This document shows, one piece after another, positions 42,147 to 51,381 of a stretch of 64,000 nt of DNA. A model generated the notes under the pieces. The model made no database searches and had not been told where the DNA came from. It worked only from the letters and a program-made list of their open reading frames with translations. The DNA comes from Escherichia coli 042 (GTDB lineage: Bacteria > Pseudomonadota > Gammaproteobacteria > Enterobacterales > Enterobacteriaceae): NCBI RefSeq assembly GCF_000027125.1, contig NC_017626.1. One strand, 5' to 3'. The first letter of the stretch is position 1, and the number at the start of each line of letters is the position of its first letter. The position numbers and the translations under genes were made by a program.

Positions 42147-44534
42147 TTATCCAATACGTGCTCGTGCGCGTTCCTGTTCACGGATCTGCGCCTGAATTTG
42201 TGTATAAAGCTGCGCCTGTTCATTATCGCGATCGGTCGCGGTCACGACCAGTGCGTAAGGCTCCTGCTCGCTGCTGAATGCTTCGCCCCAGTCTCTGTCC
42301 TGACGGGTAACAACAATAAACCATTTTTCATCCGGGTTACGCTGGCGAAAAGTCCAAATCGACGACTGTACCGTCCCGCGTTCCCGCTGTTGGGCTGATA
42401 CAACACGGTTAGTCTGGGCATCATCGGAGCGGGTTTCCGTCTCACTCTGCGTCTGGTGATTAAAACTGGCCTGCACTTCATCCAGCGAGCGGCCCTTAAC
42501 CAGCCGGAAACCGATCCGTGTGGCAGTATAATCCAGCCGGGTGGTACGCACGGCGGGTGAATATGCCAGCGTAACGCGGACTTCACGGGTTGCACGCTGC
42601 GATCGTAAAAAAGAAGCCGGGAAGGGCAGTTCAAAAAATTGGTGCGCGTTATTTTCTATCTGCTCTTCACATCGCATGACCACCACATTTTCAGAAGAAC
42701 GATATAACGCATCTTCATCAATGATGCCGTAGCCTGTCACGTCGCGCTCAATCTCCCGGTTTCTCGTTGCAGGCGCATTTCTATAGCTTTCTCTCATGGC
42801 CTGCGGAAAAGCCTGCGTCATCTCCTGAGAAACAGAAGCATGATTGACCAGCATTGCCCGCAGCATATTGGCAGACATTTCCGGGTATTCATTTAGCAGT
42901 CGACCCGCCAGATGTGTGATATACGGCGCGGCAAAGCTGGTGCCGCTGAGTTCTTTAAACAGCGTATTACCCTGAAACTGGTGATGGCAGCTTAATACGC
43001 CCAGACCGCGCATATGTGCCTGCCATTGCCCTTGCCGAACGTTGGAAGCGACATTGCCACCGTGCGCTACAACGTCAGGTTTAAACGCGCCTTTTACCGA
43101 CGGGCCGTGTCGGGTAAAAGGCGACGGTTGGTTTTCCGTTGCCGGGCTGAGATGCTGAATATCGCCAGGCCTACGCTGCGCATCCAACGTTGCGTTATGT
43201 CTGGCGACGCTGCCCACTGTCAGTACGTTCAGCGCCGGAGCCGGATCGATGATTACGCTGTCCTCATGCAACAGGTAGTCAGGATATTCATCCCGCCAGC
43301 TATTTTGCGGCACCGGAGGATCGTCGCTGCCTGCGAAATTCCCCGCAGAGACGACAAACAGTACATTATATTGCCGCGCCAGCGTATCTAACAGATACGC
43401 CATACCGCGAATATGTTTGCCGTCATAGGGCGCATTAGCATTCCCCAGCGACAGATTGAAAATGCGGCAACCGAGATCGGTAAAATACGCGACGGCGGCT
43501 GTTAGTGTGCTTTCAATCGTTTCGGCATTGAATTCAGCCCGCTCGTTCAGTACTTTCCCGTTATACAGCCATAGCTGCGGCTGCCAGAAATTGCTCTGGT
43601 TACAGGCTTCAACGTCGCCATACAGAGCAATACTCGCTACGGCGGTGCCATGCCCCTCTTGATCAAACGCATCCTGATTGGGAATAAAGCTGGCGCTTTC
43701 AGCAATGGCGGCACTTAACAGAGGGTGATTGGTGTTGATGCCGCTATCCAGAATACAGACTCTGGCCGCATTTACCGCAGGCGAAATCAGATGCTCTGGA
43801 AGTGTATTGATGTCCCGGTTAATTTGTTGATAGCTAATGCCGCTGGACGGTGGCAAATCAACCAACCTGACGTCCCGATGCGCTAACAGGTATTCTGCTT
43901 GCGCGAGCGAAACCTCTATCCGGTACATCAACAGGCTGTCCAGATTGACTTTATCCCGCCAGAGAATCCCCTGCTCTCTGAGCCAATTTTCAAAACGGGT
44001 ATACAGGTCGATACGTCTGGGGTGATGCGCCACATCGACTGGCCAGAGCTCCACATCCAGATTAAAGCGTTCCGCTACAGGAAAACCATAGCGCCGGAGT
44101 GCCCAGCTTTTACGATCTTCCGCCGACCAGCCGTCAATGCCGTCAAGCGCTTCGAGAATATTCCTGTAGGTTAGGTCCGTACGGGGAAGCCCCAGTTGCG
44201 CCAGATGGGTTTCGAAGGTTGTCAGACCCTGCTCATTAGTGAAAACGATACAGACCTGTTTACCTTCCTGACTGATGAACTCCACGCCGTGATGTATCAA
44301 TGCTGAAAAATTCATTGTGCCGCTGTAGTTCAGCTTGAGGATATAGCGCCCGTCATCGGCGCTGCCGGGTACTTGTGCCAGCGTTGGGCGCAAGGTATGG
44401 AGTTGCGTCAACAGCATTTGCCCGTGCTGGCGTAAATCGCCCCTGCGAATACGGGGCATATTGACTCTGCGGGTCCGTCGGTCGTTTTGAAGTGGTGCTT
44501 TGGTAATCGTTAGATGCTGATAATTCGCCGTCAT
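42147..44534 (-). CDS. S8-family subtilisin-like serine peptidase (IetS-like)
   Basis: 795-aa product with catalytic-triad motifs in D-H-S order (CILDSGINTNHP, EGHGTAVASIA, SGTSFAAPYITH); 9-nt gap to the upstream AAA ATPase gene. Confidence 0.85.
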   Translation of the reverse strand: MTANYQHLTITKAPLQNDRRTRRVNMPRIRRGDLRQHGQMLLTQLHTLRPTLAQVPGSADDGRYILKLNYSGTMNFSALIHHGVEFISQEGKQVCIVFTNEQGLTTFETHLAQLGLPRTDLTYRNILEALDGIDGWSAEDRKSWALRRYGFPVAERFNLDVELWPVDVAHHPRRIDLYTRFENWLREQGILWRDKVNLDSLLMYRIEVSLAQAEYLLAHRDVRLVDLPPSSGISYQQINRDINTLPEHLISPAVNAARVCILDSGINTNHPLLSAAIAESASFIPNQDAFDQEGHGTAVASIALYGDVEACNQSNFWQPQLWLYNGKVLNERAEFNAETIESTLTAAVAYFTDLGCRIFNLSLGNANAPYDGKHIRGMAYLLDTLARQYNVLFVVSAGNFAGSDDPPVPQNSWRDEYPDYLLHEDSVIIDPAPALNVLTVGSVARHNATLDAQRRPGDIQHLSPATENQPSPFTRHGPSVKGAFKPDVVAHGGNVASNVRQGQWQAHMRGLGVLSCHHQFQGNTLFKELSGTSFAAPYITHLAGRLLNEYPEMSANMLRAMLVNHASVSQEMTQAFPQAMRESYRNAPATRNREIERDVTGYGIIDEDALYRSSENVVVMRCEEQIENNAHQFFELPFPASFLRSQRATREVRVTLAYSPAVRTTRLDYTATRIGFRLVKGRSLDEVQASFNHQTQSETETRSDDAQTNRVVSAQQRERGTVQSSIWTFRQRNPDEKWFIVVTRQDRDWGEAFSSEQEPYALVVTATDRDNEQAQLYTQIQAQIREQERARARIG

Positions 44535-44543
44535 GGCAGTCCC

Positions 44544-45524
44544 TTATCGGTGGGTTCTGGCGTTTTCTCGCTGAGTTGCGTTTTTTAAATCTTTTAGCGT
44601 CAGGAATTCCTGATGACGCAGGATCATATGCTTGGTTGCCCGACGGACAATGCGCTCAATATCTGCACCGCTTTTCCCGAGCAGCAGGGATAATAGCTCG
44701 CTATCGTCCAGCTCAAACTGACGGCGGGTGCCGCGTAATTTTAACGCCAACAGCTCACGTAACTGCGCCTGATCCGGCAACGGAAATTCAATCACTTCAT
44801 CAAATCGACGCCAGATGGCGCTGTCCAGAATGTGTTCATGGTTAGTGGCCGCCAGAATCAGGCTTTTACCCTGATAAGCATCCATCATTTGTAAAACGGC
44901 ATTGACGACCCGGCGTAATTCACCGTGTTCGCCGCTGTCGCCACGCTCTTTTCCTATGGCATCAAACTCATCGAACAACACCACCATTGGGTGCTCTGCA
45001 ATAAAATCGAAAATTTTACGCAGATTGGCGGCGGTTTCTCCCAAAAACGAAGACACCAGTACGTCGAGGCGGACAATTGCCAGCGGCATGTCCAGTTCAA
45101 AAGCGATAACCTCTGCTGTCAGCGTTTTACCGCAGCCCGGCGGTCCGAAAAACATGATCTTACTGGCTGCTTTCATCCCGTAGCTATGCAATACATCGCT
45201 ACGCCGGTGCTCTTCAAGGAGTTCATCAATCACTGTAGCGCTGGTCGCCGGGAGGATCATTTCATCAAGGCTGCGCTGTGGCTGCCGGAGATCCAGCAAC
45301 GGCAGGCCCCTTTCTTTATCTATCGGTGCTTGAGGAAGCGCAGGCGAGCGCGAAGCCTGAACAAGACGATCGCCGTAAAGAATATGCTCCAGATCGTTAG
45401 CCAGAAGGTGGTGCTGTTTCTGACGTTCCTCATCAATAATGGCTTCCGAAACACGACGGAAAGTAGCGGTATCACCCGTTGCGCCCGCTTTTATTAGTTG
45501 CCTTAATATCTTACCGTTAGCCAT
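44544..45524 (-). CDS. AAA-family ATPase (IetA-like)
   Basis: Walker A GPPGCGKT and Walker B VVLFDEFDA. ATG at 45524 has an AGGAG RBS; the ORF track extends to GTG 45548. Confidence 0.85.
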   Translation of the reverse strand: MANGKILRQLIKAGATGDTATFRRVSEAIIDEERQKQHHLLANDLEHILYGDRLVQASRSPALPQAPIDKERGLPLLDLRQPQRSLDEMILPATSATVIDELLEEHRRSDVLHSYGMKAASKIMFFGPPGCGKTLTAEVIAFELDMPLAIVRLDVLVSSFLGETAANLRKIFDFIAEHPMVVLFDEFDAIGKERGDSGEHGELRRVVNAVLQMMDAYQGKSLILAATNHEHILDSAIWRRFDEVIEFPLPDQAQLRELLALKLRGTRRQFELDDSELLSLLLGKSGADIERIVRRATKHMILRHQEFLTLKDLKNATQRENARTHR

Positions 45525-45549
45525 TATTGACTCCTGAAACCACAGCACT

Positions 45550-48416
45550 TCATGCGGAAGGTGAACTCAACGTCCAGCTCACCGCGAATAATTGACGGGA
45601 CGTTATTTCCGTCGCCAGCTTTTGCTCGACCTCTTCCAGCAGACGGTCCTCTTCCTGCTCGATTTTTTTCTTTTCATCATGATACTGCAACATGATGCTA
45701 TCCCGCTCGCGTTCCAGCACCTTTAATGCGCGCTTGGCTTCCATTTTCTCTTTTAGAGAAGGAAGCTGACGGGCGGCTTTACGCGCCTCTTTAATTTCTG
45801 CATCTAACTGTTTGATACGTAAGTCCAGCGCGATACGTCGATCTTCTGACCAGCGTTCAAGTTTTTCTACTTCTTCATTGTAATAAAGTTCGTTATCGCG
45901 TTCGACCTGTTGGATAAAAGAATGCCGTAAAACCTCACATTGTGTTGTTAACGCAGGCAGCAAAGGCTGTTCTTCGACAGATGTTATCTCTGATAATGGC
46001 AGGCGAAGCAGACGGGATACGGTTTCCTCTGCCAGCACTTCGCCATTTTCTGTAACAGCGACGGTCAATAGTTTCTCTCGCTGTTGCTCCTGATTTCCGA
46101 TGCTGACTTTTGCCAGCAACAGCTGTCCCGATTTCCCGCAGAACAGTTTAACATCGGCCAGTTGTCCGCTTCTGGGTTGGTAGATGAAATGGAGCTTCTG
46201 GCAAACTGGGGATGTGGAAAGGCTTGCCCCTTCATGCAGGGCAGCATCAATCAGTTGCTTCCCATATCCCTGGCTGGGCCGGAAGAATTCGGCATCTTTT
46301 TCATCCGCAATGGGCCAGTTGACGTCAAAATACTTTCCTCTGGAACGAAAACCCGTCTCAGAACGTTGAAAATCGCTCTCGTCGCTCAGAAACATTTCCG
46401 CCAGCAGCAACAGATTTTCCTGGTAATCGTTTAACTGCGCGAGGGTGGTTGTACGTCGGGTTTTCAGATTGCGGACCACATCAACGTCAAAATGCTCGAA
46501 TAATGAACGCCGGGTTTCATTCTCCCGATTTTCCAGTTGATCTTTGAGTTCATCCTGCAGCTGATTAAATTCCTGTTCAATTTGTTCATCGGAGCGGCAG
46601 TGCTGGTATATCTCATGAATACGTCGTTCAATATCAACACCTGATTCGATCGACCCCAGAATGTCATCGGATGCGCCAAACACCCCTTCAAAAAGCTGGA
46701 ACTTCTGGCTCAATAATTCAAACACGCGCTGATCGGCACGGTTGCCTTTATTAATAAAATTAACCACCACGACATCGTGTTTTTGTCCATAGCGGTGAAC
46801 ACGCCCGATACGTTGCTCCACGCGCTGCGGATTCCACGGTAAATCATAATTGATTAACAGCGAACAAAACTGGAGGTTGATACCTTCTGCGCCCGCTTCA
46901 GTACAAATCATCAGGGTGCCTTCGTCCCTGAATTTTTCAACCAGCGCTGCCTTCATATCCGCCGTACTCGAACCGGAAACCCGGCCAGAGTTCTGATGTT
47001 TCTCCAGCCAGTCGCTGTAAATCTTCTTCGACACCGCATCGCTATTGCTGCCATTGAGCAGAACCACTTCTCCCTCGTAGCCACTTTCTGACAACAGTTG
47101 CGCCAGCCAGGTCTGGGTGCGTACGGACTCGGTAAAAATGACCGCCTTACGTAATCCGCCCAGTTCAGCCGTAAAGGTAAAGGCCCGATCGAGAACGCGT
47201 AACAGTGCTTCGGCCTTGGCGTTTTTGGTAATCGATGCCGCTAAAGTCTTATAATTTTTTAACTGGTCAATTTCGGCCTGTAGCGCCTGAGGATCGATGG
47301 TATCTTCGTCATCAATGCCTTCTTCATCGCTGTAATCGTCGTAATTTTCATAATCCGTCAGCGCATCCAGCACCGGCATTTTACTTTCAAGACGGTGGAT
47401 CATCGTTTCCAGCGTTCCCTGGATCGCTGTAGACGATGAGGCCAGAATTTTACGAATGACTAACGTTACTAGGTGACGCGCGCCGCTTTTGATCGCCAGT
47501 AGATCGTCCCGCTGCAAATAAGAGGAAACCTGTTTATAGAGCACTTCTTCGTCTTCCGTCGGACGAAAGTCTTCGGTTATTGAATGGCGTCGGGTAAAAC
47601 TGATCCCGCCTTCCTGCTGAACCTGTCGACGAAGCGTTCGATTACAGATTTTATTCAGACGAACCCTTAATAATGCCAGTTCTGCATCGTCAATATTCTG
47701 TCGGGAATAACGGGCCTTGAACGAAGCAAGGTCGCCGAAAAAATGAGGATCAATCACGGAAATCAGGCCGTAAAGCTCAAGAATACTGTTTTGTAGCGGC
47801 GTGGCGGAAAGCAGTATTTTTTTTCTGCCGGACAGTGCGCCACTGAGTTTTTTGGCTGTTTTAGCGCCATCGTTCTTGTAGATATTACGCAGTTTATGCG
47901 CCTCATCCATGACGACCAGATCCCACGGGATTCGTGCCAGCTCGTGCTCTTTACGGGCAGCGAATTCGTATGAACAAATGCAGATCGCCGCTTTCCCGGT
48001 TGCATTTTCAATATCAAAGGGATTATCGCTCCCCTCTTTAACCATTTGATTGAAGATCTTCGCTTCAATAATTTGTGAAGGCAGCGAAAATTTCTCTTCC
48101 AGCTCCTGGCTCCACTGCTTGCGTAGCGTTGCGGGTGCAATCAGCAACAGTTTTCGGCGGCGTTCAGCCCATTTTGCGCCAAAATCAGGCTGGCCTCAAT
48201 AGTTTTCCCCAGTCCCACTTCATCGGCCAGGATCACGCCATTCGACAGGGGAGATGCCAGCGCAAACATCGCAGCCTCTACCTGATGAGGATTCATATCA
48301 ACCCGTGCGCTGGCAATAGTTTGCGTCAGCGAGTCCTCGGCTTTGCCGCTTAACGTCAACCAGTGGGCCAGATAACTACGTTGGTGATCTGAATACATTT
48401 TCATACCTTTGTGCAA
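45550..48416 (-). pseudogene. SNF2-family helicase-like protein with C-terminal coiled coil, split by a frameshift at a T4/A4 tract
   Basis: N-terminal 91-aa ORF carries motif I (ADEVGLGKTIEAS); the 865-aa ORF carries DEAH (VVMDEAHKLRN) and helicase C motifs (QRIGRVHRYGQ). The downstream frame reads KWAERRRKLLLIAPATL upstream of its ORF-track start, so the frames join at about 48160-48166. Confidence 0.78.
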
Positions 48417-48698
48417 AGAGGGGGAGGGGAGCGCGACCGTATTTTACTGATATATGAACCGGGTTGCTAATCTGGAAGATGGCTCGCATTACATCCCCTT
48501 GTCGTTCACCGGGCTTCGCGGTCTCTTTTCCTCGCGTCTGCAAAATCAGGCGCCGGGCTTGACCTCCTGAACACTCCTTAGTGACGACACAATGGCGCGC
48601 TCGCGCCTTTTTTGTGCCGGTGCTCGGCTACACCTCAATGGCGGACCGGGCGGGGGCGTCGCAAGGCGCGCTGGATGGACTGTTCTGAGGAGGCAGGA

Positions 48699-49402
48699 AT
48701 GAGACGATTACCGCTGATGGTGGGCGTGATAGTGGGCGTAATGCTGGCTGTCGGCTGCCATGACCGTAGGGCTGGTGTGAGGACGCTGCTGGGCGATGGC
48801 GTGGAGCAATGGGGGCAGAAGTTGCCTTACGACCACTGGGAATTCAATTTTTTTACCCGAAAAATCTGCCGGCACTGGTGACAATGGTGTATCTGGAGGA
48901 CGGGGATATCCGGGAGAGCTTTTTCCGGCGACTGGATCCGACTGAACCCAGTCAGAGCAGTGTGGGAAAATGGAGCCAGCACGTAGGCGGTTTTTTAGCC
49001 AGTTTTAATATTGGCAAGGCGCTGCCTGTCAGGATGACGGTATGCTGGGACTCAGTTATCGATAAAAAGGCGTATGAGACGGAGATCTGGTTCAGCCGGG
49101 ATACGTGGCAGCAGATGCTGACTGCCTATCCTGATACTTATCGTCCGGGAAAAATATATTACCGAAACAAAATGATTATTGGCCTGCCCCCCGGTGGTAA
49201 AGTCAGGGTATGGTTAAAAGACAATCGTAATCCTGTTGTACTCCAGAATCCTGCCCGACAGTTCACCCTGACGGGAGATGATATGCTGATATGCAAAAAT
49301 GTTCCCAACAAGATTGATTTCAGTTACATCAAGGCTAACGGTTACGATCCATTTATCCGCGATTTTATCAAGGAAAAGCCCTATCCGTATGGTCACTGGT
49401 AG
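48699..49402 (+). pseudogene. Putative lipoprotein, frameshifted at a T7 tract
   Basis: ATG 48699 with a GAGGAGG RBS; signal peptide and lipobox (MRRLPLMVGVIVGVMLAVGC). The frame terminates shortly after a T7 run (48848-48854) and continues in another frame to 49402 (197-aa ORF). Confidence 0.5.
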
Positions 49403-49424
49403 GGCGCAACGATCAGCAAAATTA

Positions 49425-49785
49425 AAATGATCTTCTTGAGATCCTTTTAAGCTGCGCGTAATCTTCGGCTTGTAAACGGAAAAAGCCGCCTTGCGGCGGC
49501 TTTTTCCGTCCGATTAGAAGTCTTCGACCTCTTCTAATCGACTGTGGTAACTGGCTTGATGGAGCACAGATACCAAATGCTGTCCTTCCAGTGTAGCCGC
49601 TATAAGGCTTCAACTTCAAGAGTTCTGCGTATCTAAATCCACTATCCAGTTACCAATGGCTGCTGCCAGTGGCGTTAAGTCGTGTCTTACCGGGTTGGAC
49701 TCAAGACGATAGTTACCGGATAAGGCGCAGCGGTCGGGCTGAACGGGGGGGCGTGCACACAGCCCAGCCTAGAGGACTCGACTTA
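49425..49785 (+). other. ColE1/pMB1-type plasmid replication origin remnant (RNA II 5' region with antisense RNA I region), truncated
   Basis: Strong similarity to the ColE1-family ori as I recall it (GATCTTCTTGAGATCC, GTAACTGGCTT, CAGATACCAAAT, CTGCTGCCAGTGGCG, TAAGTCGTGTCTTACCGGGTTGGACTCAAGACGATAGTTACCGGATAAGGCGCAGCGGTCGGGCTGAACGGGGGG), with divergent stem-loop sequences. Homology ends near 49785, before the origin proper. Confidence 0.75.
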
Positions 49786-49867
49786 TTTAATTGTGTAAAC
49801 AGGGCCTCTCCGCGAAAGACCCTTATGCATCACCTGACGTTAAAAGTCACTACACCCAAGATGACGT

Positions 49868-50247
49868 TCAATGGCACCATGTGATTTCAATGTAAGCCCG
49901 GGCCGTCTGTTCCAGTACACCAGGCTCAGCGTTGTATGTGTTAGCTGCATCAAATACCAACGTCAGCACTTCAGGATACACAACCAGATATGTAATGGAG
50001 TTATCTTCATCCAATACTTTTCCCCACGCCTGCTCAATCAGATTTCTGAGAACCACCACCTCACGACTCTTACACCAGACATCGTTATTAAGTAGCAGCA
50101 CCATAAGATAAGGAGTGGTATCGTTAGCCACAGCCTCCCTGCTCCAGAGATAATATAAAGGGGGGGCTCAACAGATTGATCTTTACGTCGCTTACACTGC
50201 AAATATTCAGAAATGAGTCTATGCATTTCACCAGTAAAATCAGCCAT
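49868..50247 (-). pseudogene. Hypothetical protein split across two frames at a G7 tract
   Basis: 69-aa ORF (50038-50247) and 87-aa ORF (49868-50131) overlap in different frames. One extra G in the G7 run at 50159-50165 would fuse them into about 126 aa. Confidence 0.3.
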
Positions 50248-50271
50248 CAGAGAGGGGGTAATGACTCCAAC

Positions 50272-50649
50272 TTATTGATAGTGTTTTATGTTCAGATAAT
50301 GCCCGATGACTTTGTCATGCAGCTCCACCGATTTTGAGAACGACAGCGACTTCCGTCCCAGCCGTGCCAGGTGCTGCCTCAGATTCAGGTTATGCCGCTC
50401 AATTCGCTGCGTATATCGCTTGCTGATTACGTGCAGCTTTCCCTTCAGGCGGGATTCATACAGCGGCCAGTCATCCGTCATCCATATCACCACGTCAAAG
50501 GGTGACAGCAGGCTCATAAGACGCCCCAGCGTCGCCATAGTGCGTTCACCGAATACGTGCGCAACAACCGTCTTCCGGAGCCTGTCATACGCGTAAAACA
50601 GCCAGCGCTGGCGCGATTTAGCCCCGACATAGCCCCACTGTTCGTCCAT
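50272..50649 (-). CDS. insB: IS1 InsB reading frame (expressed as InsAB' by frameshifting)
   Basis: 125-aa ORF matching the IS1 InsB C-terminal region ([47 protein letters not shown]). Confidence 0.8.
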
Positions 50650-50693
50650 TTCCGCGCAGACGATGACGTCACTGCCCGGCTGTATGCGCGAGG

Positions 50694-50969
50694 TTACCGA
50701 CTGCGGCCTGAGTTTTTTAAGTGACGTAAAATCGTGTTGAGGCCAACGCCCATAATGCGGGCAGTTGCCCGGCAGCCAACGCCATTCATGGCCATATCAA
50801 TGATTTTCTGGTGCGTACCGGGTTGAGAAGCGGTGTAAGTGAACTGCAGTTGCCATGTTTTACGGCAGTGAGAGCAGAGATAGCGCTGATGTCCGGCGGT
50901 GCTTTTGCCGTTACGCACCACCCCGTCAGTAGCTGAACAGGAGGGACAGCTGATAGAAACAGAAGCCAC
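50694..50969 (-). CDS. insA: IS1 InsA
   Basis: 91-aa product [43 protein letters not shown] matches IS1 InsA. Confidence 0.9.
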
Positions 50970-51349
50970 TGGAGCACCTCAAAAACACCATCATACACTA
51001 AATCAGTAAGTTGGCAGCATCACCTGTTCCCAAAATTTTATTTATCTTCATCACTTACAGAGAATGCTCAACATTTGCTAGTCTTTTCCTGTCCTGGTAT
51101 CCAAAGTCTCCTCCCAAATATCCTGGATACTAGCTTAGACAAAATGAGATTATATTTATGGTAAATTATATCATAACAGCTTTTGTTAAGGATGCTGTGT
51201 AAGATAAAATATATGGGTTAGAGGCAGATTCTTTTGCAATCAGGAAGAAGATAATCACTGATGTTATCGGATATGTAGCAGTATTCGTTATAGCTATTTA
51301 GAGAAATTTGTGCCACAATTTATTATAGAGTTTAAAGAAAAATATATTG

Positions 51350-51378
51350 AAAATAAAATCCGGGCTATTGCCCGGATT
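51350..51378 (-). terminator. Rho-independent terminator downstream of the integrase gene
   Basis: Hairpin ATCCGGGC TATT GCCCGGAT flanked by A/T runs, directly 3' of the integrase stop. Confidence 0.55.
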
Positions 51379-51381
51379 TTA

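Follow-up and report, generated by a model that had tools for sequence, protein, structure and literature searches.

The window analysed here, a stretch of 64,000 nucleotides from Escherichia coli 042, carries on its plus strand a gene for a predicted lipoprotein whose coding sequence is spread over two reading frames (48699–49402). The ATG start codon (48699–48701) follows a Shine-Dalgarno sequence, GAGGAGG (48687–48693), at a spacing of 5 nt, both read directly from the sequence. Translation in this frame, hereafter frame 0, begins MRRLPLMVGVIVGVMLAVGC... and has a positive charge at its start, followed by a hydrophobic core and a lipobox (MRR, core, AVGC), as expected of a lipoprotein signal peptide; the codon for the lipobox cysteine, Cys20, is TGC at 48756–48758, and both Gly19 and Cys20 are invariant across 24 aligned homologues. 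The initial annotation of this DNA had recognized an ORF with signal peptide, lipobox and strong ribosome binding site starting at 48699, and we concur. It had also placed the end of this frame about 30 nt past a run of seven thymines (T7, 48848–48854), the sole long homopolymer of the gene; the stop codon, TGA at 48879–48881, lies 25 nt after the run. The resulting 60-aa fragment (48699–48881) thus consists of the signal peptide, the lipobox AVGC, 32 native mature residues and a tail of eight out-of-frame residues, TRKICRHW (ACC CGA AAA ATC TGC CGG CAC TGG TGA). Coding then continues in another frame, again as had been described: the −1 frame is open from 48770 to a TAG codon at 49400–49402, and its portion from 48854 to 49402 encodes residues 53–234 and the stop codon, comprising the bulk of a DUF2931 domain and being 99.5% identical to the intact allele presented below. 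The frameshift therefore splits the signal peptide and lipobox from the DUF2931 domain. Homopolymers of at least seven bases number 22 in the 64-kb window, and by our own arithmetic the chance of one falling within the 109-nt overlap of the two frames is about 4%, although the comparative data decide the matter regardless.

Two terminator-like elements flank the gene: a hairpin followed by a T-run on the plus strand at the 5′ side (48594–48615), and a GC hairpin, terminator-like on both strands, at the 3′ side (49485–49507). A consensus scan of the plus strand between the upstream hairpin and the ATG found no sigma-70-like promoter, which together with that hairpin makes transcription of the gene uncertain. 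E. coli O104:H4 and 55989 match the window without a single difference over 921 nt, and in them RefSeq annotates two CDS, a 60-aa hypothetical protein (WP_001387040.1) and a DUF2931 family protein.

On the minus strand, at about 37636–48416 (L001:1076–11839), we observed a defence island with a type III restriction enzyme and methyltransferase. Also encoded in the island are the Ietas system, comprising the IetA ATPase and the IetS subtilase, and an SNF2 helicase resembling DrmD; no other DISARM genes are in sight. The island adjoins an integrase gene and tRNA-Phe. An IS1 copy at 50250–51014 is inserted relative to 55989, with a short duplicated junction; E24377A and several of the genomes labelled O104:H4 have this insertion too.

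The −1 frame product matches DUF2931 (Pfam PF11153) with an E-value of 4.5e-29 and a score of 101.9 bits (cutoff 22.2), covering profile positions 18–182 of 182, and PF11153 was detected in all 90 of the 90 homologues found. The fused protein, for which the initial annotation had proposed a check of Pfam or DUF membership, is thus assigned to DUF2931, the family of Tli1. Proteins that NCBI names ‘T6SS immunity phospholipase A1-binding lipoprotein Tli1-EAEC’ are 48–54% identical. Tli1 of EAEC has been described as an outer-membrane lipoprotein with a DUF2931 domain, which binds Tle1 1:1 with nanomolar affinity and inhibits this periplasmic phospholipase (PMC6730261; bioRxiv 10.1101/2024.03.05.583533), and the Tli1 proteins of Vibrio cholerae are likewise DUF2931 (PMC10395195). 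Family and gene context therefore suggest that the ancestral gene encoded a Tli1-type immunity lipoprotein of a type VI secretion system (T6SS). When the intact protein, its two fragments and the Tle1-like protein were compared with NCBIfam, no family was obtained, so that the NCBI name ‘Tli1-EAEC’ does not derive from an HMM among those scanned. A sequence search of the PDB found no relative of the protein. An AlphaFold2 model built from 24 sequences was of moderate quality (pLDDT 69, pTM 0.70) and rich in beta structure, and its comparison with the PDB by Foldseek gave no match (best E-value 0.046, TM at most 0.26); hence we made no structural assignment. In this model, the first beta-strand (residues 47–52) is the place of the frame break, and the motif F-x-F-[FI]-x-P found at the break point is conserved in the 24 aligned homologues. 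The frame-0 product keeps the signal peptide and has lost almost all of DUF2931, and the product of the −1 frame lacks an export signal. Neither of the two should protect the periplasm as an immunity lipoprotein.

The ancestral state of the gene can be read from its intact counterparts. In the E. coli genomes CFSAN004176 and A24, a single ORF of 234 aa (WP_024200229.1) occupies the same place, adjoining the same SNF2 gene. DNA alignment shows that these intact alleles have a run of eight thymines (T8) in the context AAT TTT TTT TAC, coding for N-F-F-Y, whereas the window has T7, read as U UUU UUU in frame 0; this missing T is the sole difference that matters between the window and the WP_024200229.1 allele. 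Consistently, tblastn with the intact 234-aa protein aligned residues 1–55 to frame 0 (48699–48863) and residues 50–234 to the −1 frame (48845–49399). Homology thus locates the frame change at the T7 run, and the suspicion that the lipoprotein gene is broken exactly at the homopolymer proved right. Since the intact alleles have T8 and the window T7, the lesion is a one-base deletion, and the frame is restored by one additional T, to T8, and not by T6, a direction that the initial annotation had left unstated. As a result, the window has no uninterrupted frame for an exported full-length protein: with T7 in place of T8, the product of frame 0 ends at 60 aa. The T7 allele likely originated by a slippage-type loss of one base from T8.

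The sequence upstream of the gene indicates what it was once linked to. Homology to a plasmid-borne tle1-tli module starts at 48668, and the segment 48668–48688 on the plus strand corresponds to the last six codons (ALDGLF) and the stop codon of tle1, equal to the C-terminus of the plasmid Tle1-like protein. Beyond these last 21 nt, no further similarity to Tle1 was found within the 64-kb window, and we thus regard the window gene as an orphan immunity gene. Its closest effector-linked paralogue, 87.5% identical in nucleotide sequence, occurs on plasmids of STEC and on one chromosome (the pair WP_000229015.1/WP_001253651.1, for example in pSTEC2018_166-a). There it lies 10 nt past a gene annotated ‘T6SS phospholipase effector Tle1-like catalytic domain-containing protein’, and 10 nt is the distance from the end of tle1 to the immunity gene in effector-linked copies generally. 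Window and plasmid share the 5′ junction (tle1 tail and ribosome binding site) as well as about 370 nt of 3′ flank; the shared module extends to about 49774 and includes the remnant of a replication-initiation-protein gene. However, the plasmid copy is T8, intact and accompanied by a full effector gene of 563 aa, whereas the window copy is T7 and has no effector. Among 5426 complete E. coli genomes, only 7 have a full-length tle1 of the matching type. An adjoining cognate tle1, absent from the window, was found with the plasmid paralogue and at two out of three orthologue loci inspected; these two orthologues, 86% and 75% identical and obtained from other samples, are situated directly 3′ of PF09994 (T6SS_Tle1-like_cat) genes. 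The third orthologue, an 85%-identical DUF2931 gene in Edwardsiella ictaluri chromosomes (L011/L012:6001–6675), is an orphan with an IS1 nearby; it is intact, with an in-frame T7 (TTT TTT CAC), and indicates that orphan copies of the immunity gene are present in another genus. A blastn search of E. coli DNA with ‘distant’ settings recovered no more divergent paralogue, the tli1 gene of EAEC being too diverged for such detection. As a separate observation, approximately 1400 E. coli genomes contain a fragment of about 350 nt, about 78% identical to the middle of the plasmid tle1 (e.g., EC958 3320394–3320743); this fragment, which bears the annotation ‘transposase domain-containing protein’, is possibly a widespread relic of tle1.

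We searched 5426 complete E. coli genomes with probes of 80 nt (T7) and 81 nt (T8) spanning the tract, and obtained 65 chromosomal copies, 60 with T7 and 5 with T8. Exact matches to the T7 probe account for 59 of the 65, and E24377A carries T7 together with one nearby substitution. The T7 copies are otherwise full length in 46 genomes; in about 14 more, of the type represented by M217, T7 is combined with a 12-bp in-frame deletion in the signal peptide and a 3′ truncation. The T8 copies are intact in two genomes (CFSAN004176 and A24), carry a TGC to TGA change at the lipobox cysteine, Cys20, in two others (CE0007a and CE0026a), and are truncated at the 3′ end in one (TW10573). UMNK88 and ETEC1749 account for two additional copies, 5′-truncated and without the tract. 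Altogether, lesions of at least five kinds have disabled 63 of the 65 chromosomal copies. CE0026a and CE0007a (L003/L004, position 3197) are bovine isolates, for which the RefSeq annotation begins at an internal start codon and gives a shortened ‘DUF2931 family protein’.

The copies linked to tle1 present a different picture. All of them are T8 with no net indel, in 7 records from E. coli genomes and 10 plasmid records (one from E. albertii), although the plasmid copies are nearly identical to one another and are thus not independent samples. Within clones, T7 is uniform, both among the genomes labelled O104:H4 in the matches listed and among the approximately 14 of the M217 type, and T8 is limited to other haplotype groups than these. 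We also scanned metagenomes, allowing 5–10 bases at the tract, and retrieved eight contigs. The six clean ones all read T7; two others, of 1.75x and 2.07x coverage and with several indels, one of them reading TTTTTTTTG, were dropped as assembly noise. In the orthologues the tract reads TTTTTTTCAC (T7, in frame) or TTTTTTCTAT (T6). Their codons, TTT TTT CAC or TTT TTC TAT, suggest that the run is a by-product of two phenylalanine codons and not a maintained repeat. The initial annotation had proposed looking for T6 and T8 variants; T8 does exist, in 5 of the 65 chromosomal copies, but the orthologues with their in-frame T7 or T6 show that the length of the tract is not conserved. It had also equated a fixed pseudogene with uniform T7 and no in-frame variants. 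Uniformity holds within clones, but the absence of in-frame variants does not strictly hold, given the five T8 alleles, which represent the ancestral state or separate lineages and not switching within a clone.

We consider it very probable that the window gene is an orphan Tli1-type immunity gene in decay, inactivated by an ordinary homopolymer frameshift (the whole pseudogene spanning 48699–49402, with a deletion of 1 nt). According to this explanation, a module of about 1.1 kb, made up of the immunity gene, the final 21 nt of tle1 before it and the replication-protein gene remnant, would have come to reside at the edge of the defence island near tRNA-Phe. Its gene would have had the ancestral T8 run coding for Asn-Phe-Phe-Tyr, from which replication slippage would have removed one T. 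Translation would from then on end eight codons further, leaving a 60-aa signal-peptide stub and a DUF2931 body without export signal. With no effector nearby and the matching tle1 rare (7/5426), the gene is probably under no selection and decaying. The lesions tallied above, independent of one another and reaching nearly every chromosomal copy, agree with the pseudogene reading that the initial annotation had offered as one of its options. Two observations run counter to decay. First, the reading frame is otherwise undamaged in 46 genomes, which suggests either that the loss is recent or that the island spreads as a unit. Second, the truncated haplotype is found with T7 as well as with T8, as would also be expected of a hypermutable site. 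Indeed, the 3′ truncation junction and the upstream SNP haplotype are common to M217 (T7) and TW10573 (T8), and both the window group (T7) and that of CFSAN004176 (T8) are each 3–4 SNPs away from the M217/TW10573 haplotype over 3.1 kb. Because both tract lengths are found on the truncated haplotype, and T8 is ancestral, there must have been two tract events, or one and a recombination. Such repeated change is in keeping with the elevated rate of indels that is ordinary for an 8-nt run in an unselected gene, and we see no evidence of adaptive switching.

One alternative, raised by the initial annotation, is phase variation, with slipped-strand mispairing toggling the tract between T7 (OFF) and T8 (ON), such that a subpopulation would express the orphan immunity lipoprotein. 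Known homopolymer switches usually have longer tracts. Still, the gene resembles a contingency locus in that a mononucleotide run lies in the 5′ part of a surface lipoprotein gene and that in-frame and out-of-frame alleles, T8 and T7, are both present in the species. Moreover, on related haplotypes T7 and T8 are each found both with and without the 3′ truncation, which requires at least two tract events or recombination, and E. coli genes contain fewer runs of seven U than expected, possibly owing to high indel rates (PMC4066793). The resemblance does not extend further. The tract of the window is short; among complete genomes it does not vary between close isolates, as seen in the listed O104:H4-labelled and the M217-type genomes, and the clean metagenome contigs, with T7 throughout, agree. 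Across orthologues it is neither conserved nor lengthened beyond what coding needs. The gene is also not otherwise intact in its ON and OFF states, as 14 T7 copies and three of the five T8 copies have added lesions: further irreversible damage piles up on OFF alleles, and T8 alleles too are lost, by nonsense codon or truncation. Finally, where the effector is present, the copies are always T8. We therefore judge phase-variable expression to be improbable.

We give somewhat less credence still to recoding, according to which T7, in the phase U UUU UUU, would serve as a site of −1 ribosomal frameshifting or transcriptional slippage and a functional amount of the full-length protein would be made. 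The run at 48848–48854 forms a canonical −1 slippery heptamer in the right phase (AAU UUU UUU), and a −1 slip on it would give N-F-F-Y..., identical to the T8 product. Yet the loss of one T from the in-frame AAT TTT TTT TAC always yields both the motif and its phase, which thus are no sign of selection. The sequence U_UU.U_UU.U supports more than 0.1% of −1 frameshifting in E. coli without stimulators, and the class H_HH.U_UU.Y, which includes it, is among the efficient motifs when a pseudoknot follows (PMC4066793). Against this, the 50 and 100 nt downstream of the run fold no better than shuffled sequences (z −0.58 and −0.17), giving no sign of a stimulatory structure. The expected yield is a fraction of a percent. 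Nor is the two-frame arrangement conserved, orthologues and paralogues being plain single ORFs. A trace of full-length protein is plausible; a designed recoding site is not. To a combination of the two mechanisms, in which T8/T7 would act as a slow and reversible mutational switch and leaky −1 slippage would provide a basal trace of lipoprotein, we assign the same slight likelihood as to recoding. It draws on one supporting observation, the occurrence of T7 and T8 on the truncated haplotype; if true, a clone could regain protection on meeting rare attackers with this type of Tle1.

The probability of a sequencing or assembly error, also mentioned in the initial annotation, with the true sequence T8 and the gene intact, is negligible, because, even though the window has two private one-base deletions relative to 55989 (41416 and 48171–48174) and its source assembly may thus contain indel errors, the identical T7 80-mer is present in 59 other complete genomes, E24377A has T7 too, the six clean metagenome contigs read T7, and RefSeq annotates the split as two CDS in T7 genomes.

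Tli1 of EAEC is encoded in the EC042_4535 region, within the sci-1 T6SS cluster (Flaugnatti et al. 2016, as summarised in PMC6730261). The window gene and its relatives share with it the DUF2931 domain, the N-terminal lipoprotein signal peptide, the invariant Gly-Cys lipobox, a length of about 225–234 aa and, in intact relatives, the location directly 3′ of a Tle1 (DUF2235/PF09994) phospholipase gene. The window gene differs in being only about 48–54% identical to proteins so named, in being frameshifted and orphaned (21 nt of tle1 left), and in its position in a defence island near tRNA-Phe, outside any T6SS cluster. Parallels to its fate are tli1b of EAEC and PA3292/tli1b of Pseudomonas aeruginosa PAO1, T6SS immunity genes that are either redundant or non-cognate and have lost their activity through small mutations. 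The lesion of PA3292 is the insertion of a single A in an A-rich sequence, resulting in a frameshift (PMC13133936). Those genes, however, lie beside an effector, and the P. aeruginosa ones belong to DUF3304, whereas the window gene belongs to DUF2931 and is fully orphaned.

Databases and literature already cover the family, the locus itself and the occurrence of orphan or inactive immunity genes, and the sole correction concerns annotation: the two RefSeq CDS (the 60-aa ‘hypothetical protein’ and the ‘DUF2931 family protein’) are one frameshifted Tli1-like pseudogene. The stakes are low and no new question is opened; the locus offers a small and clean example of orphan T6SS immunity genes decaying once the effector is gone, whereas effector-linked copies are intact.

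The two private deletions of the window fall in neighboring genes of the defence island. At 48171–48174, in the minus-strand SNF2 gene (45550–48416), the window has T4, whereas eight of eight compared E. coli genomes have T5; as a result, two ORFs, of 865 and 91 aa, take the place of the 949-aa SNF2/DrmD-like helicase. Over 47600–51600, a 4-kb interval that contains this site, no identical match to the window exists among the 5426 genomes, and the best matches listed are one base longer; the T5 to T4 change reflects either a private mutation or an error in the assembly. At 41416, within the mod gene of the type III system (about 40509–42137, minus strand), a run of two C is reduced to one relative to 55989 (AACGCCAACG to AACGCAACG), which should frameshift mod.
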